DNA of 64,000 bases from an uncultured Treponema sp. (GTDB lineage: Bacteria; Spirochaetota; Spirochaetia; Treponematales; Treponemataceae). The notes below the pieces were generated by a model. It worked only from the letters and a program-made list of their open reading frames with translations. It was not told where the DNA came from and did not search any database. The translations under genes and the position numbers were made by a program. The DNA is taken from the NCBI RefSeq assembly GCF_946531015.1, contig NZ_CAMNAL010000001.1, one strand, 5' to 3'. The first letter of the stretch is position 1. Each line of letters opens with the position of its first letter. This document shows, in pieces, positions 5,199 through 57,700 of this stretch.

Positions 5199-7256
5199 AT
5201 GGCTGGATTTTATGATTTTTATGATGTAGCTGTCGTTGGCGGTGGACATGCCGGAATCGAGGCTGCCCTTGCATCAGCACGAATGGGACTCAAAACCCTT
5301 CTTATTACTCAGACAATTGACTCAATCGCACGAATGAGCTGCAACCCTTCAATAGGCGGTATCGCAAAGGGAAACATCGTCCGGGAAATTGACGCTCTTG
5401 GCGGCGAAATGGGTAAGCTCATCGACAAATCTATGATTCAGTTCAGGATGCTCAACAAAAGCCGTGGTCCTGCGGTTCAGGCTCCACGAAGTCAGGCAGA
5501 CAAGCTCCTTTATTCAAGCCTTGCCCGACAGACAGTCGAGACAACGCCAAACCTTTACACATTAATGGACACTGTCGTTGATTTGCTCACAACCGAAAGC
5601 GACACTCCCCTTCCCCCGGCAGAAAGCTCCCAGTCAGGCCAGATTCCGGGCGAATTCACAGAAAAAGACATTCTTTCAGAAGCCGCAAAATCCGGCAAAA
5701 GGCAGAAACTCACGGCTCTCGTCACTGAGCGGGGAAGATTGATTCCAGTCCGCTCGGTCGTCCTTACGACAGGCACTTTTTTAGGAGGCCGAATCTTTAT
5801 CGGCGAATATGACGCTCCCTGCGGCCGCATTGGAGAGCAGGCGGCTTTCGGGCTCACACAGAGCCTAAACCGCCTGGGCTTTACGACAGGCCGCCTGAAG
5901 ACAGGCACCCCCCCGCGAATCCTGCGTCACACAATCGATTTCTCTCAGCTTGAGATTCAGGCCGGAGACGAGACAATCGTTCCTTTCTCATTTGAAAACG
6001 AAAGCGTTGACCGCCCACAGGTTCCCTGCCACCTGGTTTACACCAACGCAAAGACCCATGAAATTATCCGGGAAAACATCGGCCGCTCGCCCCTGTATTC
6101 TGGCAAAATCCACGGAATCGGTCCCCGCTACTGCCCTTCAATCGAAGACAAGGTAATGCGATTCGCAGAAAGGGAGAGGCACCAGCTTTTCGTGGAGCCA
6201 GAAAGCCTTGCCACGGACGAAATTTACCTCAACGGTCTTTCTTCGAGCCTGCCTGAAGAAGTTCAGGATTCTTTCCTGCGTACCCTTCCGGGCTTTGAGA
6301 ACTGCCATGTTGCCCGCCCGGGTTACGCCGTAGAATATGATTATGTTGAGCCGACCCAGCTTTTCCCATCTCTTGAGACAAAAAGGGTGGCGGGACTTTT
6401 TAACGCCGGTCAGATTAACGGAACCTCTGGCTACGAGGAAGCGGCAGGACAGGGCCTGGTCGCCGGAATCAACGCCGCCCTTTATGCCCGTGCTCATAAG
6501 GAGCTTTGCGGGGACTTGTGCCCCTCTCACTCTGGAATGGGACAGGTTCCGGCCAGTGCCGAACCAAAAGCCTTCGTCTTCAAATCACACTTTACCCTCG
6601 AAGAAATCAGGCATTTTGCAGAAATTTCCGAAAAAGAAACTCACGCTGTGAACACTCTTCTTGAAAATTTCCAGAAAGAACAGGGAAAGGAAAATTTTCA
6701 CACAATTCCGGACTGGGAACCCCTTATTTTGGGCCGGGACGAAGCCTACATCGGCGTTCTGATTGATGACCTTGTAACTTTGGGAACAAAAGAGCCTTAC
6801 CGCATGTTCACGGCCAGGGCAGAATACCGCTTAAAACTGCGCCACGACACGGCCGACCGCCGCCTTTCCGAAAAGGCATTCAAGGTCGGAATTAAAAGCG
6901 AGGCTCAGTTTAATGCGACAAAACTCAAATACCAGCAGGTTGAGGAAGCCACGGAACTTTTGCTAAAAGATGCCAAAGCCGAAAATCCTGGATTCAGCCC
7001 AATCGTTTGGGAAATTGCCCGGGAAGACGCAAAATACAAGTACTACATCGAAAAGCAGGATGCAAGGGTGGCCAAAATGCACAAAATGGAGCATTTCCAT
7101 ATCCCGGCCGATTTCGACTACTCAAAAATCCCGGCCCTCTCAGGTGAAAGCCGGCAGAAGCTTGAGGCCGTCCGCCCGCTCACTCTGGGGCAGGCAAGCC
7201 GAATTTCAGGAATCCGCAATTCGGATATAATGTTATTGATGGTGTACTTGAAATAA
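5199..7256 (+). CDS. mnmG: tRNA uridine 5-carboxymethylaminomethyl modification enzyme MnmG/GidA
   Basis: VVGGGHAGIEAA, MSCNPSIGG, GPRYCPSIEDK, GQINGTSGYEEAA, EPYRMFT. Start moved to MAGFYD. Confidence 0.97.
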   Translation: MAGFYDFYDVAVVGGGHAGIEAALASARMGLKTLLITQTIDSIARMSCNPSIGGIAKGNIVREIDALGGEMGKLIDKSMIQFRMLNKSRGPAVQAPRSQADKLLYSSLARQTVETTPNLYTLMDTVVDLLTTESDTPLPPAESSQSGQIPGEFTEKDILSEAAKSGKRQKLTALVTERGRLIPVRSVVLTTGTFLGGRIFIGEYDAPCGRIGEQAAFGLTQSLNRLGFTTGRLKTGTPPRILRHTIDFSQLEIQAGDETIVPFSFENESVDRPQVPCHLVYTNAKTHEIIRENIGRSPLYSGKIHGIGPRYCPSIEDKVMRFAERERHQLFVEPESLATDEIYLNGLSSSLPEEVQDSFLRTLPGFENCHVARPGYAVEYDYVEPTQLFPSLETKRVAGLFNAGQINGTSGYEEAAGQGLVAGINAALYARAHKELCGDLCPSHSGMGQVPASAEPKAFVFKSHFTLEEIRHFAEISEKETHAVNTLLENFQKEQGKENFHTIPDWEPLILGRDEAYIGVLIDDLVTLGTKEPYRMFTARAEYRLKLRHDTADRRLSEKAFKVGIKSEAQFNATKLKYQQVEEATELLLKDAKAENPGFSPIVWEIAREDAKYKYYIEKQDARVAKMHKMEHFHIPADFDYSKIPALSGESRQKLEAVRPLTLGQASRISGIRNSDIMLLMVYLK

Positions 7257-18796: not shown

Positions 18797-19594
18797 TTAA
18801 TTCAGCAGCACATTATCATTATTCACTTTGATTTTCTTGAAAAGTTCTACTATTGAATCCATGGTGAGCTTCTGCTTTTCTTCGCCAGAAATGTCCGAGA
18901 TAATCTCGCCCTTGTCCATCATAATGAGGCGGTTTCCGAAATCCAAAGCATGCTGCATGTTGTGTGTGACCATCATCACGGTTAGATTGTATTCTTCGGC
19001 AAATTTTTTAGTAAGCTCCATGACGATTGCGGCATTTGTTGGGTCAAGGGCTGCCGTATGCTCATCCAGGAGAAGGAGACTCGGCTTGCTCATAACGGCC
19101 ATAAGGAGGGTGAGAGCCTGCCTCTGTCCCCCAGAGAAGTGGTCAACATTGTCGGCCAGCCGGTTTTCAAGTCCCATGCCTAGAACTTTTAGCTGCTCCC
19201 TGAAAAAAGAGCGCATCATGTTGTTTAGGGAAATTTTAAGTCCCTTAAAGCCCTTTTTGTAACAAATCATCATATTGTCTTCCAGGCTCATATTTCCTGC
19301 CGTTCCCAGCCGCGGATTCTGGAAAATGCGTCCTATGTATTGTGCCCTCTTGAATTCAGCATCATTTGTAATATTCTTCTGAAAGCCGTTTTGATCCGTC
19401 AGCGTGATTGTACCAGTCGTTGGCTTTAAGCTTCCAGCGATTATATTGTAAAGGGTGGATTTTCCGGCTCCGTTTGAGCCTATCACCGTGATAAAGTCCC
19501 CCTTATTGATGTTGAAATTTATGTTTTTGAGGACTTTTTGTTCGTCCGGAGTGTTCGCATTGAATGTGATAGAAATATTTTCCAGCTTAAGCAT
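18797..19594 (-). CDS. ABC transporter ATP-binding protein (no adjacent permease)
   Basis: GSNGAGKS, FSGGQRQ, LLLLDEHTAALDP, VTH. Confidence 0.92.
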   Translation of the reverse strand: MLKLENISITFNANTPDEQKVLKNINFNINKGDFITVIGSNGAGKSTLYNIIAGSLKPTTGTITLTDQNGFQKNITNDAEFKRAQYIGRIFQNPRLGTAGNMSLEDNMMICYKKGFKGLKISLNNMMRSFFREQLKVLGMGLENRLADNVDHFSGGQRQALTLLMAVMSKPSLLLLDEHTAALDPTNAAIVMELTKKFAEEYNLTVMMVTHNMQHALDFGNRLIMMDKGEIISDISGEEKQKLTMDSIVELFKKIKVNNDNVLLN

Positions 19595-19663
19595 TTTATT
19601 TTCCTGCCGCCTATTTTAGAGGATTATGAAAGATTTTGAAAGTATCAGGCGTACAAGTTTACG

Positions 19664-19939
19664 TTACATGTACTTCTGGATTATTTCAAGCACGGTTTGT
19701 TTTGCATGTTCTTTTTCGGCATCGTATTTGAGGAAGAGAACTGACGGATCGATTTTCATGGCATTGCAGAGTTTTAGGATGGTGGAGATGCTCGGTGTGC
19801 GTTTCCCATTTTCAATATAAGCAATCATGTTTTGAGAGACGCCAGCTTCAAGAGAAAGTTCAAATTGAGAAAGATGTAATTTTTCACGTTCCTGCCGTAG
19901 TCGCTCATAAATATGTTTTTCCTGCTCTTCTATCACCAT
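19664..19939 (-). CDS. XRE family helix-turn-helix regulator
   Basis: LSQFELSLEAGVSQNMIAYIENGKRTPS. Confidence 0.9.
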   Translation of the reverse strand: MVIEEQEKHIYERLRQEREKLHLSQFELSLEAGVSQNMIAYIENGKRTPSISTILKLCNAMKIDPSVLFLKYDAEKEHAKQTVLEIIQKYM

Positions 19940-20094
19940 ATAGTAAGATTTTTAAGCAATTTAGTATGATTTACAAATAAATATTGTATTTATTTTATAG
20001 AAAATTATGTGCAATTAAGTGAATTTTGTGTTGCCTTAAAGAAATCTAGTATGTATAATTATTACTATATTATAATTATATAAAGAGAAGTTAT

Positions 20095-20655
20095 ATGAAA
20101 AAGTTCGTGGCGTTTACTTTATCATTACTATTCTGTACTTCAATTATCATCGCACATGTCGAAAAGAAACGTTGTGAAATCTGCTCAGGTTCTGGAACTG
20201 TCGCATGCTTGACTTGTGGCGGTCGAGGAACAACTTACAGAACAACCAAAGATGGTAAAAAACAAAGCATCCGCTGTAACACTTGTAACGGCACAGGAAG
20301 AAGAACTTGCACCGCATGTGGCGGACAAGGTTGGGAATTTGTCAATGTCACCCAAAATTACGCACCACTTCCGTCGCCACCTTCGCACGAACCTCAAAAA
20401 CACAACTGCACAGCTTGCAATGGTCGAGGAACAGTACAATGTCCGTCATGTAGAAACAGCAGCTATGGAGCTGGTAAACAAATGTGTTCCACATGTTTCG
20501 GTATGGGGTACAAAATCATAAATATTCTTACAGCCGAAAAAGAAACTTGTACGGTCTGCAATGGGACTGGAGCGAAACCTTGTGCAAAATGCAATGGTTC
20601 TGCCCGTGTAGACTGTCAAGCATGCAATGGCGTGGGGTATTTTGAGGAAAGATAA
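20095..20655 (+). CDS. Exported protein with multiple CxxCxGxG zinc-finger repeats
   Basis: MKK signal peptide; about 10 CxxC(x)GxG units in two blocks joined by a Pro-rich linker; no J-domain. Confidence 0.75.
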   Translation: MKKFVAFTLSLLFCTSIIIAHVEKKRCEICSGSGTVACLTCGGRGTTYRTTKDGKKQSIRCNTCNGTGRRTCTACGGQGWEFVNVTQNYAPLPSPPSHEPQKHNCTACNGRGTVQCPSCRNSSYGAGKQMCSTCFGMGYKIINILTAEKETCTVCNGTGAKPCAKCNGSARVDCQACNGVGYFEER

Positions 20656-20656
20656 A

Positions 20657-22447
20657 ATGTTTATGAAGAAATGCCATGCTGATTTTTACATACAAAAGAC
20701 ATTCACATTACTGACATTTATTTTATTGTTTATTTCGCCTTGTGTTTATGCAAAGAAGCTTGCTTTCGATGCAAACGGGGATATGTATTACGAATATGGC
20801 GAAAGAAAATATTTTGATGGAGAAGTTGTTAGTTCAAAAGAATTTAGAGTTATCCGCATTTTTTCTGCAATAGAAATGGACGACTTTGCCGTTGTAAAGG
20901 AAGAACTTGCTTCAGGAATCGGAATTAATGATTCCATACGAGAGATTCATGATGATGGTGATATAATGGAATACACTCCACTTATATTTGCGATAAACAA
21001 CGGAAAGGAAGAAATAGCAAAAAGTCTGATTGAAATGGGGGCAAATCCCGACAAAACTGTTAAAGTGTTTTTCAATGGACAAAACTTTGAATTTTATCCG
21101 CTTTTAGCTGCGTTTACACAATTTTCAAATGAGAAAGCCCCAATTTCAATTGATTTCATTATGAACATAGTGAAAAAGGCGAGAAATCTACCAAAAGACT
21201 GTGATGTAAATGTGGGGCTTAACTATACCGAAGAACTTTTAGATTTGTATTTTTCAAAAATTTGCGAACTTTATATTGGGGATGAAGACAGACAGGTAAA
21301 CTGTTTGATTCAGATGATGTCAGGTGCAATGTTCATAGCATTCTCTCACGGAGAGAGCCAGTTTGCAACAGAATCAGCAGACTGTATTGAACAGGTAGTA
21401 AATTTTCCACTTGTGTTAGAAAAACGTGATATATTCTTGCAATGGTTCAAAAATGTTCGTTCGAATTTTGGTGCAGGGTATTCGGGACAAAGAGAATGGC
21501 AGAGAGTTGAGGCTGCATTTAAATTTCTTGAAATGAAAAAAGATCCCCGGTTAAATGCTAAAACCAGTAAAAACGAAACAGTCGCTCATTTTTCCCCTGT
21601 AATTTCTAAAATCATCCCAATGCAAGCAGAAGATGTAATACCAAAGGTTGTTGATTCAAAAAGTAAATCTGTGAAAACAGAAAATACCACCTCAAAGACT
21701 TCTAGTTTAAAAAGCCAATCCTCTGTACTAGCGGAAAACAAAACACCTGTTGTCAAAAAATCAGAATCATTATCTCCTGAAAACAATGCAGTGAAAATCA
21801 TTGATGCCTCTGCGGTCTCAGGAAAGTTCAAGGACAATATCGTTATCATCAGCAAAATAAGCGAGTCAAGTCCTTCAATAAAGATAAGTGCAATCTCAAA
21901 TGACAGTTTTATCCCTATTGGAACTGCTGTATTACATGGATTCGATGACAGCCTAAAATTCGATTCCTCAAAATCTTTACGGTTAGCAGACTATAAAACA
22001 TTCCAATTAGAATCTTCGGATGGAAAAACTTATACCTATAAAGCAGAAAAGAGAAACAATGACTTGATTATTGAGGTTCGCGAGAACGGAAGCGATTTAT
22101 CCAAGCCCGCAATTCCAAAATGGACTGGAAACACCGATGTTTTTTCATTTGATTTAAAATCTTTGGAAGATGAACCTGATGAAAATGTCAAAATTTTCTG
22201 CAATTCTTTGCGAGGCGTTGGCAAAACTTTCAAATTACGCGCTTATGATTCAAAACAAAGGAAATGGATTCTCTACGGAACAGTTCAAGTCAAAAAACAG
22301 AGAAATGACGAGAAAATGAAAACAGAAAAAGGCGTTGAAGACCTTGATGACTACCGCTATTTCGCCATTGAAACCGAGAATACAAATTCATACAAATTTT
22401 ATTTTGAAGAAAAAGATGATGATTTGTTCATTACGGTGAGTGATTAA
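20657..22447 (+). CDS. Exported ankyrin-repeat protein with a duplicated C-terminal domain
   Basis: Signal peptide; YTPLIFAINNGKEEIAKSLIEMGANPD; S/K-rich linker; two roughly 95-aa repeats ending DLIIEVRE and DLFITVSD. Confidence 0.7.
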   Translation: MFMKKCHADFYIQKTFTLLTFILLFISPCVYAKKLAFDANGDMYYEYGERKYFDGEVVSSKEFRVIRIFSAIEMDDFAVVKEELASGIGINDSIREIHDDGDIMEYTPLIFAINNGKEEIAKSLIEMGANPDKTVKVFFNGQNFEFYPLLAAFTQFSNEKAPISIDFIMNIVKKARNLPKDCDVNVGLNYTEELLDLYFSKICELYIGDEDRQVNCLIQMMSGAMFIAFSHGESQFATESADCIEQVVNFPLVLEKRDIFLQWFKNVRSNFGAGYSGQREWQRVEAAFKFLEMKKDPRLNAKTSKNETVAHFSPVISKIIPMQAEDVIPKVVDSKSKSVKTENTTSKTSSLKSQSSVLAENKTPVVKKSESLSPENNAVKIIDASAVSGKFKDNIVIISKISESSPSIKISAISNDSFIPIGTAVLHGFDDSLKFDSSKSLRLADYKTFQLESSDGKTYTYKAEKRNNDLIIEVRENGSDLSKPAIPKWTGNTDVFSFDLKSLEDEPDENVKIFCNSLRGVGKTFKLRAYDSKQRKWILYGTVQVKKQRNDEKMKTEKGVEDLDDYRYFAIETENTNSYKFYFEEKDDDLFITVSD

Positions 22448-22457
22448 CTCACTTATA

Positions 22458-22495
22458 AAAATAATGTTCTGCCAAGAACTGAAACTGGCAAGGAG
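22458..22495 (+). promoter_or_regulatory. Conserved 38-nt leader, copy 1
   Basis: AAAATAATGTTCTGCCAAGAACTGAAACTGGCAAGGAG before ATG 22504. Confidence 0.8.
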
Positions 22496-22503
22496 TTTAT
22501 TTT

Positions 22504-23097
22504 ATGAAAAAAATTGTTTTAGCTTTCTTTTGTATGTTGATTGCCACACATTCTATAATTGCACAAGAAGTATTCAACAGCGTATCTATAGGAGGCTGCT
22601 CAGAATTTTCAAATCCGCTAATGTTTGGCGGAGTGATTACAACGGAAAGCGTTCTTATGCAAAATAAAGATTTAAACTTGGATTTTTCAGCAGAGGGGGT
22701 TTTCAAGCTTGGATATAGCACTTGGGAAGAAAAGTTTCATGGTAACGACGAAAAAGGAACATATTCCGGAATGTTATTGGCTTGCGGTGCTTATATTGTT
22801 TTTAATAAAGGCTTGACAAATACATTGGGACTTCGCTTGGGAGCTGGTGGCGAGCTCACATATTTCAGCGGAGATGACAAAAGCCATATCGGAGGACTCT
22901 TAGGCGGACTCGTTGGGGTGGAATTATTTCCGCAAAAAACCTTCTCACTCGTTTTAGATACATTTCCTTCGTATGCAAGCAAATCAAAAGACTCAGCCTT
23001 CGATTGTCCTATCAACCTGACACTACGATTTAATTTCTGTAATTTAATGCACGGAATAAACTATGCGGATAATGTGGATTATTTACTGAAAGAGTAA
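22504..23097 (+). CDS. Exported hypothetical protein, possibly a small outer-membrane beta-barrel
   Basis: MKK signal peptide; Gly/aromatic alternating strands; NLTLRFNF near the C-terminus. Confidence 0.6.
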   Translation: MKKIVLAFFCMLIATHSIIAQEVFNSVSIGGCSEFSNPLMFGGVITTESVLMQNKDLNLDFSAEGVFKLGYSTWEEKFHGNDEKGTYSGMLLACGAYIVFNKGLTNTLGLRLGAGGELTYFSGDDKSHIGGLLGGLVGVELFPQKTFSLVLDTFPSYASKSKDSAFDCPINLTLRFNFCNLMHGINYADNVDYLLKE

Positions 23098-23153
23098 GAA
23101 TAAAACAGAAAGTTATTATGAAAAAAAGAGAGATTTAAAACTTCTCTTTACAT

Positions 23154-23190
23154 AAAACAATGTTCTGGCAAGAACTAAAATTGCAAGGAG
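23154..23190 (+). promoter_or_regulatory. Conserved leader, copy 2
   Basis: AAAACAATGTTCTGGCAAGAACTAAAATTGCAAGGAG before ATG 23197. Confidence 0.75.
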
Positions 23191-23196
23191 TATCTT

Positions 23197-23493
23197 ATGA
23201 AAAAGATGATGATGGTAATGACAGTATTGACAATTATTTGCGGAACGGCTTTTACTCAGGGAATTTCTCCAGACAAAGCTCTTTCATACACAAAGAAATA
23301 CACTTGTGGACATAAAGAATCTGCCTATACCACAGATAAAGGAAAAGCAGGAAAAATAATTGAAGAGTTTAGCAAATGTGATGCTTGTAAGTATGATGAA
23401 AAACGAAAGAGCATTTGTACAAATTCTCAGTCAACACAGGAAAACAGAGATACTTATAACTGCAATAAATGGGGTGATACATTTGGTTATTAA
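23197..23493 (+). CDS. Small exported Cys-containing hypothetical protein
   Basis: AGGAG RBS; MKK signal peptide ending TAFT; CGH...CDAC. Confidence 0.7.
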   Translation: MKKMMMVMTVLTIICGTAFTQGISPDKALSYTKKYTCGHKESAYTTDKGKAGKIIEEFSKCDACKYDEKRKSICTNSQSTQENRDTYNCNKWGDTFGY

Positions 23494-23525
23494 AATTATA
23501 AATCAATGTATCTATTTTTATATTT

Positions 23526-23563
23526 AAAATAATGTTCCGCCAAGAACTGAAACTGGCAAGGAG
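23526..23563 (+). promoter_or_regulatory. Conserved leader, copy 3
   Basis: 37/38 identical to copy 1; before ATG 23570. Confidence 0.8.
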
Positions 23564-23569
23564 TGTTTT

Positions 23570-23908
23570 ATGAAAAAATGGATTTTGGTGTTGGCGGTGC
23601 TGGCAACGGTCGGAGGAATGGCGTTTGCCCATGATAGACCTGAAATAGAAAAGTTTATCAAAAAATATGAATCTGCTGCTGATGATGTAGTAAGAGGTGT
23701 CGATTATCTTGTAAGAAATCCAAATAATGCAAATGGAGTAAAAAGACTAGAAGCTGCACAGGATAAAATGACGGAGATTAAATGGACTGCTTCGGATTAT
23801 GTAAACGAACTAACACAAGCAGACATGGCTAGAGTACAGGGAGCTAATGAAAAGATGCATAAGGCTGCCGCAAAACTCGAGAACTTTAAGCGAAAAAAAG
23901 GGTACTAA
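23570..23908 (+). CDS. Small exported alpha-helical hypothetical protein
   Basis: AGGAG RBS; signal peptide ending AFA. Confidence 0.72.
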   Translation: MKKWILVLAVLATVGGMAFAHDRPEIEKFIKKYESAADDVVRGVDYLVRNPNNANGVKRLEAAQDKMTEIKWTASDYVNELTQADMARVQGANEKMHKAAAKLENFKRKKGY

Positions 23909-23938
23909 AACATAAGTTTTGAATTGCTTGTTTGTTTT

Positions 23939-23976
23939 CACATGATTAAAACATAAGTCTATGTTTTAATCATGTG
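23939..23976. repeat. Perfect 17-bp inverted repeat
   Basis: CACATGATTAAAACATA-agtc-TATGTTTTAATCATGTG. Confidence 0.85.
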
Positions 23977-24203
23977 TATAAAAACTTAATCTAATTAAAA
24001 AATATTAGGTTTATAAAAAGAGGAACTTTATAGCAGGATTTCTTCTAATTATAATTCGCACATACCCTAGAGAAACTCAAAGTATCTCTGTTAAAAATTT
24101 AGATGCTAAAGAAAGAATTGGATTCTATAAGTATATTGGCTGAATACTTTAGATGAAATACCATTATGGGGGCTTCCATTGAAAGTGTTCTTTTTATTCC
24201 TTT

Positions 24204-24488
24204 TTAATCTTCCGCCTTAACCAAAAACAATTTCGTCCCCTCCCCCTTAAAGCGTTCTTTTACGGCGGCAACAATAGCCTTCAGGGTAGAAACATGCTTG
24301 TCTTCCATATAACTGATGAGAACAAAATTTGTCTCAGGCCAGGTGGAACTTCCCATCTTGTACGAAGTCTTTCCCCGCCCCACGACGGTCGGGATAATCG
24401 TGTACAAAACGCCCGGAATATGCTCTTCCATGAGAGAAACGATTTCGTCCTGCACGGACTGATTTGCGATGATTTCAGCTCTAGTCAT
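24204..24488 (-). CDS. P-II-like transporter-associated protein (PG0541 type)
   Basis: 94 aa; YT.IP.V.GRG...MGS.TWPE.N; downstream of the RND operon. Confidence 0.7.
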   Translation of the reverse strand: MTRAEIIANQSVQDEIVSLMEEHIPGVLYTIIPTVVGRGKTSYKMGSSTWPETNFVLISYMEDKHVSTLKAIVAAVKERFKGEGTKLFLVKAED

Positions 24489-24692
24489 TTTTTTCCTCCA
24501 ATTTTTTTACTCATATGATTCAATGAACTCCCCGACAAGATACAAGGGAACATTTTTATGAGCGAAGTTTTTACAAAATGCAACACTTTTATGAGCGAAG
24601 TTTTGTTACAATCTTGCCAGAATCGAATCAACGCATCTGTTTAGGGAAACGCATTCCATTGAAGAAGAATATTTGCAGAATTGTTCTAAAAA

Positions 24693-24956
24693 TCAGTCCT
24701 CATAATGCCCACGGCAAGCGATTACGATAATCTTATCATCATCAACTTTATACACAAGCCTGTTTGCACTGTCTATTCTTCGGCTAAATCGTTCTTCTAG
24801 ATGCTTTAATTTTTCTGGCTTTCCTTCACCATTCAATGCTCCATCACGGCATATGCTCTGGAGAAGTTTATTGATTTTCCGCAATGTTTTTCGATCTTGT
24901 TCCTGCCAATAGAGATAATGAGAAAAACCGTTTTCTGTAAAAATAATCTTGCTCAT
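24693..24956 (-). CDS. yoeB: Txe/YoeB family toxin
   Basis: YLYWQ..DRK, GEGKPEKLK, SRRID..NRLVY, CRGHY. Confidence 0.93.
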   Translation of the reverse strand: MSKIIFTENGFSHYLYWQEQDRKTLRKINKLLQSICRDGALNGEGKPEKLKHLEERFSRRIDSANRLVYKVDDDKIIVIACRGHYED

Positions 24957-25213
24957 TCATCCTCCATTGCCAGAAGTTCTTCCATTGTTTTTTCAATAAC
25001 TTTACCTTCCCTCAATTGTCGTTCACTCTCTTCAAGCATTTTTAAATACGCCTCATTATTCCTGGCTTTTTCCATCGCTTTGTATTCTTTTTCGGAAAGA
25101 ATAACGACATTGCGATTTTCTTTTCGTGGAATAATTACAGGCTCTCCAGAGAATGCCATATCGAAATATTTTTTTAAGTTTGAGCGAAAATCCATCTGTT
25201 TTGCGATTGTCAT
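24953..25213 (-). CDS. yefM: Phd/YefM family antitoxin
   Basis: DFRSNLKKYFD..., PVII.R, NVVILS..EY; GGAGG RBS before MTIAK; 4-nt overlap with the toxin. Confidence 0.88.
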   Translation of the reverse strand: MTIAKQMDFRSNLKKYFDMAFSGEPVIIPRKENRNVVILSEKEYKAMEKARNNEAYLKMLEESERQLREGKVIEKTMEELLAMEDE

Positions 25214-25230
25214 AGTATGCCTCCTTTTTT

Positions 25231-25280
25231 TAGTACTAAAAACTGTACTATTTTCTGTACTAAATATAGTACAGAAAATA
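25231..25280. promoter_or_regulatory. Toxin-antitoxin autoregulatory operator
   Basis: Four GTAC-core boxes; perfect 14-bp IR TATTTTCTGTACTA-aata-TAGTACAGAAAATA (25249-25280), resembling the TGTACA operators of yefM-yoeB. Confidence 0.7.
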
Positions 25281-25333
25281 CGAATTGGCAAGTGTTTCCG
25301 GGGCGTCGCGCGTAGGGGGAAACTTTCCCCTCC

Positions 25334-28300
25334 TTACTCCTCCGTCAAAAGCACTTCAATCTTGCTTTTCTCATGCTTTTTTTCTTTCATTACAAGCGAG
25401 TACAAAACCGGGATGAAGAACAGCGTTACGAAGGTCGATGACAGAAGGCCTCCCACAACTGCGACACCGATTGGCTGAACCATGCCTGCGCTTCCGCTTG
25501 TGGCAAAACACATTGGGAGCATTCCAAGAACTGTGGTAAGAGTCGTCATCAAAACTGGGCGCAGGCGGCTGGTTCCGGCTTCAAGGCAGGCTTCCTTCAT
25601 TTTGTAGCCACGGTCAATCAGAAGGTTTGTGTAGTCAACCAGAATAATTCCGTTGTTGACGACGATTCCGACAAGCATAATCAGGCCGACTGCGCTGACC
25701 ATAGAAATTGTCTGGCCTAAAATCTTGTAAATAGCCACGACACCGATAATCAGGAAGGGAATCGTCATCAAGTTTATAAACGGGGCCTTAAAGCTCTCGT
25801 AGGTACCGGCCATTACGCCGAAAACAAGGAGAATAGCCATCAAAATAATTAAACCGTAAGTTTTACCCTGGGACTGCATGTTCTGCCATGCTCCGTCGTA
25901 AACCAAAGTGACATCGTCAGGAACAATGAAAGTGCCTGCTATTCCGTCTTTTATGTCCTGCTCCACCTCATAAGCGTTTCTTTCGGTAATTATATCGCAA
26001 GTTACGGTGACGATTCTGGATTGATTTTCACGCTTTACGCTTACAGGCCCCAGACCTTTTTTGACTTTGGCAAAGTTCGCCACGCTTACTTTTCCGCTAG
26101 TTCCGTTCACAAAAATCTGCTCCAGGTCAATAACCTGCTTTCGGTCTGATTTCTGGTACATGAGAACCGTTGAATAGTCCTTTCCGCCCTCACGATAAGT
26201 CGTTGAGGTAACGCCGTTCATGGCATAGTTGATTTCTTTTGCGACAGTTGTGACATCGACTCCAAAGGCATAAGCCCTCTGACGGTCAATCTCAATCTCA
26301 ACCTCAGGAACGCCTTTCTCAATATCAACGGAAGATTCCCCAAGGTCAGGAATTGTCTTCATTACGGCCGTAATCTGGTCTGAAATATCCAAGGCTTTTT
26401 CCAAATCATCGCAGCGAATCTTGATTTTGATGTCGCTTCCCGTCATTTGACCACGCATACCGGCCCTAAAACCGAATTTCGCTCCCGCAAAATCGTTGAA
26501 ATGGGAACGAAGCTTCGTCTGCACAGTCTGGGCATCATCAATCTGCTCATCTGAATCCGGCAGCTTAATTTCCAGAGTACCCCGGTAAGACGAGCTGGAC
26601 GCACCGCTGGTTGAAATAATGGTTTTGTAGCCCTTGATTTCATCTCGTACAATCTGCTCAAACTGACTCATTACGGTCATTGTTTCTTCAAGGGTAGTTC
26701 CAATAGGCAGGGTTACATTCATGGTTACGCTGTCATCCTTACCGTTGGCCATCATGTTCACATTCAAAGTTGTGGCAAGGGCAAGGGCAATAATCAGGGC
26801 AGAAAAGCAAATCACTACTGTAGCTTTTCTGTGCCCGAGAGCGCTCTTTAAGGCACGACGATAGATGGCCGTCAGCTTTATGAGTGGGATATCCAAAAGC
26901 TCATAGAATTTTTTGAGGGGCTTAAAAGTGACGGGCTTTTCATTTCTGTTTGACAGGGGAAGGAATTTTCCGGCCAGGACAGGAACCAAAAATATAGCCA
27001 CAAAAAGCGATGAAACGAGGGCTATGACAACCGTAAAAATGATTCCCTTGAACATCTGCCCCATCATTCCCAAGTCCGAGATAAAGAAAAGGAAAGGAAT
27101 GAAAACGCAGATTGTGGTGAGGTTTCCCGACAAAACCGACATTACCATTTCACTGGAACCAAGAACGGCGGCAACTTTTGGCTTTGCTCCACGGCTCCGA
27201 TATACATAGATGTTTTCAATCATAACGATGGAAGCATCTACTATCATGCCGACACCCAGGATAAGCCCCGTAAGAGTCATCATGTTCAGGGTAATTCCCG
27301 CAAAGTGCATACACAACATCGTAATTACGATAGAAAGCGGAATCGAAATTGCGATGATAATCGTTGACTTGAAATTTTTCAAAAAGAGGAAGAGAACCAA
27401 AACCGCAAGAAGCAAGCCCTGATAGCAGCTTTCAAGCAAAGTGTTGATTGTGTCACGGATTGAATCGGTGGTGTCCGAAATTATTTCCAGTGAGACATCG
27501 CTGGGCAAAAGTTCCTGAATTTCCTCCAGCTTTTCGTAAACCTTGTTGGCAACTGTAACTGAGTTTTTTCCCGACTGTTTGGTGACGCTGACATAGATTC
27601 CCGGAGTTCCGTTGATGTAAACTTCGTTGGTCTTATCCTTGTAGCCCATATAGGCCCTGCCTATGTCAGAAAGACGAACTACATAATCGCCTTTTTTGGT
27701 AATTATGGCATCGTTAATCTCGTCAATGCTGGCAAATTCACCTATCGTCCTGATTGAATAGTCAGTTTTTCCCTCTGTGATTTTTCCGCCGCCAAGCTCC
27801 AGGTTTTGTTTCGAGAGAGCAGAATTCACTGAAGACAGAGTGAGACCGTAAGCCGCAAGCCTGTTCTGGGAAATGTCAACCCGCACGATTTTTGTCCGGC
27901 CGCCGCTCACAGAAGCCTCTGCAACACCGTCAGTCTGCTCCAGAAGGCTCACGATAGTATCCTCTGCAAGGACTTTGAGTTCATCCCGGCTGCGGTTTCC
28001 CCTAACGGCAATTCGCATGATTGGCATTGAGTCCGAGTCCATCTTAAAAATCGTGGGGCTGTCAGCGTCATCTGGCAGTCTTTTCAGGACTCTGTTGATT
28101 TTATCGCGAACATTGTCCGTGGCGATGTCGAGGTCAGTTCCGTAGTTGAATTCCATTGAAATTGAAGAAGAGCCTTCTTTTGATGTGGAAGTGAGGTTTT
28201 TGAGTCCACTCACGGAAATCAGCTGGGCCTCAAGGACTTTCGTGACAGTTTTTTCAACTGATTCCGGCCCGGCATTGGTATAAGTCGTCCTAACCGTAAT

Positions 28301-56893: not shown

Positions 56894-57700
56894 TTGCACA
56901 GACAGAATTATGAAAACTATCTCAGGAAACTGAATTTTTCCGAGAACACAATCCGCTCTTACTTGTATGCGGCGAATGATTACAAAAAACGCTTTGGGAA
57001 GATTACGCAAAAGAGAATCTCTGATTACAGGGACTTTCTGCTTGAAAACTATTCCGTCAAGACCGTGAACTTACGGCTGGCTGGACTCACAAAATACATG
57101 CGTTTTCTTAAAAAAGACAAATTACTTCCGAAATTCGTGAAGGAACAGGGGGAGACATACCTGCAGAATGTTATCAGCAGCGAAGACTACGAGCGACTCA
57201 AAAAATCACTGGAAAAAGACAAGCGACTCAAATGGCTTTTCATCGTTTGCTATCTTGGCTCGACAGGAGTTCGCGTGAGTGAGCTGATTCAGCTGAAAGT
57301 GGAAAATGTAAAACAGGGTTTCGCTGACATCCGCTCCAAAGGCGGGAAAATCAGAAGAATCTACATTCCCGAAGAACTGAAAAAACGCACGCTTGAATGG
57401 CTAATGTCCGAAAAAAGGAATGACGGCTATCTTTTCCTCAACAAATTCGGCCTTCAAATAAGCACAAGGGGAATATCAGCGGAGCTTCAACATTTTTCTT
57501 CTATATATAACATCAACCATAAGACACTTCATCCACATTCTTTCCGGCACTTCTTTGCGAAAAACTTCCTGGAAAAAGGCGGTGACATAACCTTTCTTGC
57601 TGACTTGCTTGGCCACGAAAGCCTAGAAACGACGAGAATCTACCTTAGGAAAAGCATCGAAGAGCAAAAGAAAATCGTAAACACCATAGTAAAGTGGTAA
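56894..57700 (+). CDS. Tyrosine recombinase/integrase
   Basis: TGVRVSE, KGGK.R, HSFRH, LLGH, TRIY; all catalytic residues present; TTG start. Confidence 0.92.
   Translation: MHRQNYENYLRKLNFSENTIRSYLYAANDYKKRFGKITQKRISDYRDFLLENYSVKTVNLRLAGLTKYMRFLKKDKLLPKFVKEQGETYLQNVISSEDYERLKKSLEKDKRLKWLFIVCYLGSTGVRVSELIQLKVENVKQGFADIRSKGGKIRRIYIPEELKKRTLEWLMSEKRNDGYLFLNKFGLQISTRGISAELQHFSSIYNINHKTLHPHSFRHFFAKNFLEKGGDITFLADLLGHESLETTRIYLRKSIEEQKKIVNTIVKW

Follow-up and report, generated by a model that had tools for sequence, protein, structure and literature searches.

Why should three unrelated exported-protein genes, standing side by side in one bacterial genome, each be headed by the same 38-nucleotide (nt) sequence, and what does that sequence do? 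The question is raised by an uncultured Treponema sp. (NCBI RefSeq assembly GCF_946531015.1, contig NZ_CAMNAL010000001.1), of which we analyzed a stretch of 64,000 nt, here called the window. An earlier, sequence-only reading had noted the repeated element between positions 22458 and 23563 and had left two explanations side by side: a new compact cis-regulatory RNA or operator, possibly bound by the XRE protein encoded nearby, or a shared junction by which single-gene cassettes are accreted or shuffled into an AT-rich island. Our analysis points, with moderate confidence, to a portable translation-start leader that also provides homology for cassette swapping. The leader is the only sequence common to genes that otherwise cannot be aligned, and in one strain a breakpoint lies inside it.

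Leader copies and their spread among Treponema species

The window holds three complete copies of the leader, each ending in a Shine-Dalgarno (SD) sequence close to a start codon.

22458..22495, + strand: leader copy 1, type a, with loop TGCCAA, tail TGGC, and SD AAGGAG, 8 nt 5′ of the ATG of the gene for a 197-amino-acid (aa) protein
23154..23190, + strand: leader copy 2, type b, with loop TGGCAA and tail TTGC, 6 nt 5′ of the ATG of the 98-aa protein gene
23526..23563, + strand: leader copy 3, 37/38 identical to copy 1, 6 nt 5′ of the ATG of the 112-aa protein gene

These positions and identities agree with the sequence-only reading, which had placed the copies 6 to 8 nt before the ATG of three MKK signal-peptide genes, and the GTTC-N6-GAAC inverted repeat that it described is present in all three. 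The loop is likewise complementary to the bases beside the ribosome-binding site (RBS) as described, pairing GCCA with TGGC in copies 1 and 3 and GCAA with TTGC in copy 2. Copy 1 begins 10 nt past the stop codon of the preceding 594-aa gene, copy 2 is one base shorter than the others (the missing base being in the tail), and the spacing from GGAG to ATG is 8, 6, and 6 nt in copies 1, 2, and 3, respectively. In 100 shuffles of the window, the expected number of occurrences of the leader core pattern was 0.00. Searches with nhmmer --max and blastn-short found no copies beyond these three in the 3.1-Mb assembly, which is 84% complete. A weak match elsewhere in the genome (contig C156, ~5749-5790, − strand), TTGGCAAGGAGTATTTTATG, corresponds to the SD-proximal half of a type-b leader; it shares the SD-proximal tail only (~5755-5777), precedes a nonsecreted gene (MSKELVDL...), and is probably just a favored ribosome-binding context.

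The genes behind the three copies encode the following products.

22504..23097, + strand: 197-aa exported protein, an orphan, porin-like by language-model features
23197..23493, + strand: 98-aa cysteine-rich exported protein, a weak relative of genes behind type-b leaders on metagenome contigs L028 and L074
23570..23908, + strand: 112-aa exported helical protein, whose signal peptide is common to unrelated proteins of other leader carriers (RUG62, L030, and G431)

All three products have signal peptides, none belongs to a Pfam or NCBIfam family, and no BLASTP similarity was detected among them beyond the signal peptide, in agreement with the claim that they are nonhomologous. The 197-aa protein is probably a small outer membrane barrel, the language-model features being a lead only; its homologues among 5.8 billion proteins are confined to its own 90% cluster. 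The 98-aa protein, possibly a lipoprotein, is 27 to 34% identical to the type-b genes of L028 and L074 (E value of about 1e-4), and the 112-aa protein is helical in its Atlas model, again as a lead only.

The leader is rare in the genus and scattered. Under a relaxed pattern, with matches kept only if they had a GTTC arm followed by an ATG and the rest counted as chance, it occurred in 5 of 338 species genomes at 1 to 3 copies each. The named carriers are T. zioleckii kT3 and the rumen metagenome-assembled genome Tb.RUG.62 (RUG62); the leader is also found on metagenome contigs L028, L030, L074, L085, and L088, and a further match, L084, is the same contig as that of RUG62. It was absent from viral contigs, where three chance matches lacked both the GTTC arm and the ATG; a phage origin was rejected. 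Judged from MnmG, the carriers do not form a tight clade: identity to this genome was 84% for T. zioleckii and 69 to 81% for the other three carriers (75% over the full length for RUG62, with the G250 and G431 matches each split in two), compared with 72 to 76% over the full length for leader-less members of the genus.

Wherever it occurs, the leader lies 5 to 9 nt 5′ of the ATG of a gene with a signal peptide, and the array genes run in one direction in all eight loci. The products themselves are diverse. In G250, the leader-headed genes encode an OMP_b-brl barrel (PF13505) and an FGE-sulfatase lipoprotein (PF03781), and elsewhere they encode a two-helix membrane family of ~110 aa, several cysteine-rich orphans of 85 to 103 aa, and further kinds. 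Leader copies are 85 to 98% identical to one another, whereas the flanking and mature sequences are unalignable. Type-b leaders, for example, are 90 to 98% identical in L088, L028, L074, and T. zioleckii (which has one such leader), while the DNA to their left and right is unrelated; the genes behind them are weakly alike (27 to 41% identity).

How far the common sequence extends into the gene differs from case to case. Copy 1 and leader a of L088 match over the whole leader (93.9% over a 49-nt BLAST match that reaches the ATG), with homology ending at MKK and no common signal peptide. Copy 3 is 81 to 85% identical to the RUG62 and L030 leaders over 107 nt, through the signal-peptide codons, where the match ends. 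The same signal peptide is also found in G431, which shares both it and the leader with RUG62 in front of different mature proteins, and a signal peptide is common among the type-b genes of L028 and L074 as well.

Within the leader, a stretch of ~14 bases that separates the hairpin loop from the SD (AAGAACTRAAAYTG) shows no variation in 15/15 copies, and identity between species (85 to 93%) exceeds the 76% DNA identity of the flanking genes; MnmG of the species compared is 75 to 84% identical. The invariance of the core, taken with this level of conservation, points to a binding partner. Decayed forms of the leader can also be seen. In Treponema sp. Tb.RUG.62 (L118 5729-6190, − strand), a gene of the membrane-protein family seemingly lacks a stop and reads through a degenerate leader without the 5′ hairpin arm, and the last RUG62 array gene has an even more decayed look-alike (CAAGATTATG...TCAAGGAG).

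A strain-variable row of exported-protein genes

Four syntenic loci have conserved flanks and differing genes between them, and both haplotypes of the window species are found on several contigs each (cluster look-ups).

Window locus: XRE gene (−) and DnaJ-type gene (+) on the left; a row of the 594-aa gene and three leader-headed genes; PG0541-family gene and RND operon on the right
L088 locus: left flank as in the window; a row of two different genes behind leaders a and b; contig ends before the right flank
L028 locus: left flank as in the window; a row of a 110-aa membrane protein, an FN3 lipoprotein (behind a different leader), and a 103-aa cysteine-rich protein; right flank as in the window
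L074 locus: left flank as in the window; a row of the first and third L028 kinds only; right flank as in the window

The most direct evidence for exchange comes from L088. This contig is 98.7% identical to the window over 3,645 nt, with ABC and XRE proteins 99.6 to 100% identical, and belongs to the same species. It equals the window up to ...AAAATGTT / ...GATAAAATGTT at position 20661 and then runs on with the window sequence of 22469 onward, which lies inside leader copy 1. This breakpoint inside the leader means that the 594-aa gene, absent from L088, sits within a leader, with AATGTT on both sides.

20653..20661, + strand: stop codon of the DnaJ-type gene and leader remnant AATGTT (remnant 20656-20661), where homology to L088 ends
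20663..22447, + strand: exported protein of 594 aa that has a single weak ankyrin repeat; its gene is flanked on either side by an AATGTT leader start

The remnant is a truncated fourth leader copy between the DnaJ-type and 594-aa genes, and the 594-aa gene is without an SD-bearing leader of its own. The RUG62 array is headed by a 277-aa look-alike of the N terminus of this protein, as judged by eye on the first ~70 residues.

The comparison of L028 with L074 shows exchange on a finer scale. Their flanks are 0.9 to 1.0 identical and their leaders and signal peptides 0.9 to 0.95, whereas the mature parts fall to 0.25 to 0.5, so that within an otherwise unalignable gene row only leader and signal peptide are retained. 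Such a pattern is beyond point mutation and requires replacement by recombination. The right edge of homology shifts between pairs, with the start codon (copy 1 and L088 leader a) and the signal-peptide end (copy 3 and RUG62) as its extremes, which fits general rather than site-specific recombination. L028 also carries an extra cassette (6111-6776) that is absent from the nearly identical L074; it encodes a lipoprotein of 221 aa containing two FN3 domains and has a leader of another kind, with only AAGGAG-T6-ATG in common.

Taken together, the breakpoint in the leader and the presence of other genes behind the same leaders support the suggestion of a shared junction for shuffling single-gene cassettes. 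The outcome that the sequence-only reading had named as refuting, namely diverged paralogues with no extra motif copies, no covariation, and a fixed gene order, did not occur. The AT-rich island is also real, with a GC content of 33 to 38% at ~19600-25400 compared with 44 to 50% in the surrounding DNA.

The remaining features of the island frame the row.

19664..19939, − strand: XRE-family helix-turn-helix regulator, divergent from the operon and kept in four syntenic loci
20031..20059, + strand: sigma-70-like promoter match TTGCCT-17-TATAAT, a consensus match only and the sole strong one upstream of the row
20095..20655, + strand: 186-aa exported protein composed of CxxCxGxG zinc-finger motifs of the DnaJ type; its conserved gene opens the operon and flanks the variable row on the left
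23930..23985, no strand assigned: inverted repeat with 26-nt arms, 88% complementary, and a 4-nt loop, 3′ of the last array gene
24204..24488, − strand: transporter-associated protein of the PG0541 family; its gene closes the RND operon and is the conserved flank to the right of the variable row

The DnaJ-type protein consists almost wholly of zinc-finger motifs, with about ten CxxC, and has homologues of 48 to 50% identity in four other Treponema species; no leader was found at these four more distant loci. As a guess, it could be a periplasmic cysteine/zinc chaperone for the cysteine-rich cassette proteins. At the other end of the row, the inverted repeat at 23930-23985 would probably mark the end of the operon. 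It is absent from L028 and L074, which have instead a conserved 120-nt segment of their own (L028 7266-7385).

A YoeB/YefM toxin-antitoxin pair (24693-25213, − strand) adjoins the row. It lies in an 838-nt insertion (24500-25337) between the PG0541-family and RND pump genes, which abut in L028, and a perfect 14-nt palindrome just upstream of the pair (25249-25280) is probably its operator. In G431, a YefM homologue (66% identical) is located ~1 kb downstream of that genome's own leader array.

What the leader may do

The leader is best described as a short upstream segment joined to a strong AAGGAG ribosome-binding site, with some copies extending into the signal-peptide codons. Recombination would have placed it before many unrelated exported-protein genes in a strain-variable, AT-rich row in a few rumen Treponema species. 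Most transcription of the row may start at the DnaJ-type gene's promoter, with some contribution from weaker boxes; −10-like hexamers can be seen by eye 2 to 11 nt upstream of several leader copies. Leader a follows directly on the DnaJ-type stop codon and the sole strong promoter lies upstream of the row, so that the leaders are probably intercistronic in at least some positions. Each leader could load ribosomes equally onto its gene and might also place that gene under one posttranscriptional control exerted by a common factor. The 40 to 100 nt of identity would be the homology that lets general recombination exchange, duplicate, or delete cassettes once DNA has been taken up from relatives.

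Several points weigh against this explanation. The transcription start, the operon structure, and the effect of the leader on translation are all inferred. An SD sequence does not need 30 further conserved bases, and the invariant core suggests a specific binding partner. Some cassettes do without the leader altogether (the FN3 lipoprotein gene of L028, three genes of the RUG62 array, and the 594-aa gene of the window), and the sample is small, at about 8 leader types.

The leader could also be a compact cis-regulatory RNA, an alternative that we consider unlikely. In such an RNA, GUUC and GAAC would form a 4-bp hairpin, and pairing of its loop with the 4 nt that precede the SD would produce an H-type pseudoknot whose linker is A-rich; alternatively, a longer hairpin in which UUCY and the loop pair with the tail and AGGA would mask the SD, and a ligand, a protein, or a small RNA would choose between the two states. 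The fixed orientation of the leader and its fixed distance to the ATG are consistent with this view, as is the invariant, binding-pocket-like core between the paired segments, and the minimum-free-energy folds do take the form of the longer hairpin, with UUCY and the loop paired with the tail and SD. The proposed pairs are standard pairs in 93% of cells of the alignment, compared with 5 to 46% when the partners are slid by 1 to 3 columns. However, in none of the 8 proposed pairs do both partners change, and the covariation score, based on about 8 distinct sequences, equals that of shuffles. Helix 1 (GUUC/GAAC) is nearly invariant; helix 2 (loop/tail) is paired in 89% of cells and is broken or re-registered in two types. 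Leader a of L028 breaks two of the four loop/tail pairs, the RUG62/L030 type re-registers the pairing, and the second RUG62 copy retains everything but the 5′ arm.

The sequence-only reading had described the loop pairing as apparently co-varying, and here the outcome is divided. The difference between GCCA/UGGC and GCAA/UUGC is real, and type b does retain a 4-bp loop/tail helix through three joint changes; however, these amount to a re-registration accompanied by a deletion, which occurred once and is found in all type-b leaders. Loop/tail helices formed between cognate partners average 3.6 bp, compared with 3.1 bp for noncognate partners. Nor is the SD unusually masked: its mean opening energy is 2.77 kcal/mol, compared with 2.34 ± 1.82 kcal/mol in 235 control genes from this genome whose SD is likewise AAGGAG, and only copy 1 falls within the top 5% of these controls. 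Fold z-scores ranged from −0.4 to −2.4. Rfam 15, including preQ1-I, gave no match to the leader at E values up to 10 over positions 19500-25500; the sole overlapping hit, to AfaR on the opposite strand, was a chance match that reached 23.5 bits where the gathering score is 100. The low copy number (1 to 3 per genome in 5 of 338 species) and the absence of a common pathway among the downstream genes also argue against a riboregulator, and we find no support for the proposed pseudoknot or switch at the RBS.

A more ambitious version, which we think rather improbable, would make the leader a ~30-nt H-type pseudoknot riboregulator whose core, AAGAACUGAAAC, is read by a dedicated protein, small RNA, or metabolite, so that one posttranscriptional switch serves all cassettes. 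If that were true, a pseudoknot riboregulator would be both the regulatory and the recombination handle of the cassettes.

The leader might alternatively act as DNA. A GTTC-N6-GAAC dyad at or just after the transcription start could bind a dimeric repressor, the XRE protein or another, and switch the cassettes together. The dyad arms are invariant in 14/15 copies while the 6-bp center varies, the −10-like hexamers are suitably placed, and an XRE gene adjoins the array in four syntenic loci, with a different XRE gene beside the T. zioleckii array. The association is nevertheless loose: an XRE gene stands beside 5 of 8 arrays, that of T. zioleckii is unrelated in sequence (not a BLASTP relative of the window XRE), and none was found beside the RUG62, G250, and G431 arrays within the stretches fetched. 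The divergent spacer between the XRE and DnaJ-type genes (19940-20094) contains no GTTC-N6-GAAC. In addition, conservation reaches well past the dyad and is locked to the SD in strand and distance, leaders directly after the DnaJ-type stop codon leave no space for a promoter of their own, and a promoter scan found no strong promoter at the three copies. An operator role is very unlikely in our judgment, and the comparisons made here do not support its attribution to the XRE protein. The same spacer region (19938-20070) contains two 17-nt inverted arms (ATATAGTAAG... / ...TTACTATAT) ~100 nt apart, which make a more plausible XRE operator than the leader dyad does.

Plain descent, in which tandem paralogues diverged past recognition while gene conversion kept a leader of ordinary RBS function, has a slim chance. 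Several products still have common signal peptides, the type-b genes are weakly alike, and the near identity of copies 1 and 3 within one genome would fit conversion. However, leaders head proteins of different Pfam families, and point divergence cannot yield mature parts of 25 to 50% DNA identity where the flanks are 95 to 100% identical. The higher conservation of the leader than of the coding flanks across species also disagrees with this explanation.

The leader as a site-specific recombination site, with short inverted arms and a 6-bp spacer acted on by a tyrosine recombinase in the manner of integron attC, Xer/dif, or Mycoplasma vis/vrs, has a slimmer chance still. The single-gene units in one orientation with a repeated site between them, the sharp left edge of conservation at or near GTT in several copies, the 594-aa segment inside a leader, the variation concentrated in the 6-bp center, and the adjoining toxin-antitoxin pair would all suit it, but the row has no recombinase gene beside it (the closest member of the Phage_integrase family, PF00589, at ~57170-57655, is ~34 kb off, and the other five in the assembly are on other contigs), inspection by eye showed no attC-like imperfect palindrome of 57 to 141 bp and no R″/R′ pair, the right edge of homology differs between pairs, some cassettes lack the site, and genes that all run in one direction make inversion switching of the Mycoplasma kind impossible.

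Two further candidates were rejected: a small upstream open reading frame from the ATG in AATGTTC (MF-x-QELKL), whose ATG is missing in L030 and the second L085 copy, whose codon 4 is TAA in L074 leader a and the L085 copies, and whose remainder is unconserved; and a sigma-54 or extracytoplasmic-function promoter inside the motif, for which, by eye, the GG/GC spacing is wrong and the −10 box would land on the start codon.

Comparison with known systems and significance

The closest parallel to a portable translation-start leader is the erp (ospE/ospF/elp) family of Borrelia burgdorferi with its "upstream homology box" (Marconi et al. 1996, PMC178399; review, PMC10016077). The erp genes are carried on cp32 prophage plasmids, one locus per plasmid, and their shared part comprises a promoter and operators bound by BpaB, BpuR, and EbfC plus a lipoprotein leader peptide (PMC178399; PMC10016077). 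Both systems belong to spirochaetes and join a conserved upstream-plus-leader module, spread by recombination, to mature parts of many independent origins; in both, exported or surface proteins are encoded at allelic loci whose contents differ by strain. In contrast to erp, the Treponema row is chromosomal and tandem, has an ABC/XRE region on one side and an RND operon on the other, lacks phage genes in its vicinity, and shares mainly the 5′ untranslated region and SD, the signal peptide being common in some copies only; most of its products are not lipoproteins. The row thus works like erp but is no member of the erp family.

Small SD-linked RNA regulators resemble the leader in size and layout. 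The preQ1-I riboswitch is an H-type pseudoknot of ~34 nt, and fourU and ROSE elements are RNA thermometers. The leader has a similar size, short hairpin, and A-rich linker, with a 3′ strand by the SD and a U/C-rich stretch able to pair with AGGA, but it differs from them in having no Rfam match, no covariation, SD masking at the level of controls, and genes unrelated to queuosine or heat shock.

Surface-gene clusters of Mycoplasma, namely, vsp of M. bovis, vpma of M. agalactiae, and vsa of M. pulmonis, also have a conserved 5′ untranslated region and signal peptide on divergent bodies. There, the conserved 5′ region is the rearrangement site, and an adjacent site-specific recombinase moves one promoter by inversion among genes of opposite orientation. 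The Treponema genes, in contrast, run in one direction, have no adjacent recombinase, and vary between strains rather than by clonal switching.

A chromosomal integron has reportedly been found in Treponema denticola, and the row has an integron-like appearance, with strain-variable, mostly single-gene and often orphan units in one direction, a repeated site, and a toxin-antitoxin pair nearby. In contrast to integrons, it has no adjacent intI, no attI, and no attC-type site, and some of its units are without the repeat. Whereas attC lies 3′ of a gene, the Treponema repeat is at the 5′ end and carries the RBS. Spacers from a stop codon to the next leader are 0 to 56 nt, GTTCYGS does not fit attC GTTRRRY, and no complementary inverse core is visible upstream (by eye).

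A constant short leader with exchanged protein bodies, as in erp, is a simple route to surface diversity, here outside pathogens. The row is located on the chromosome of a commensal rumen spirochaete, and its constant part is noncoding. The invariance of ~14 bases that ribosome binding does not need is a testable lead to a binding factor, and since one carrier, T. zioleckii kT3, is a named and presumably cultured strain, experiments should be practical. Strain-variable rows of exported proteins in gut species are likely a contact surface with the host, phages, and competitors.

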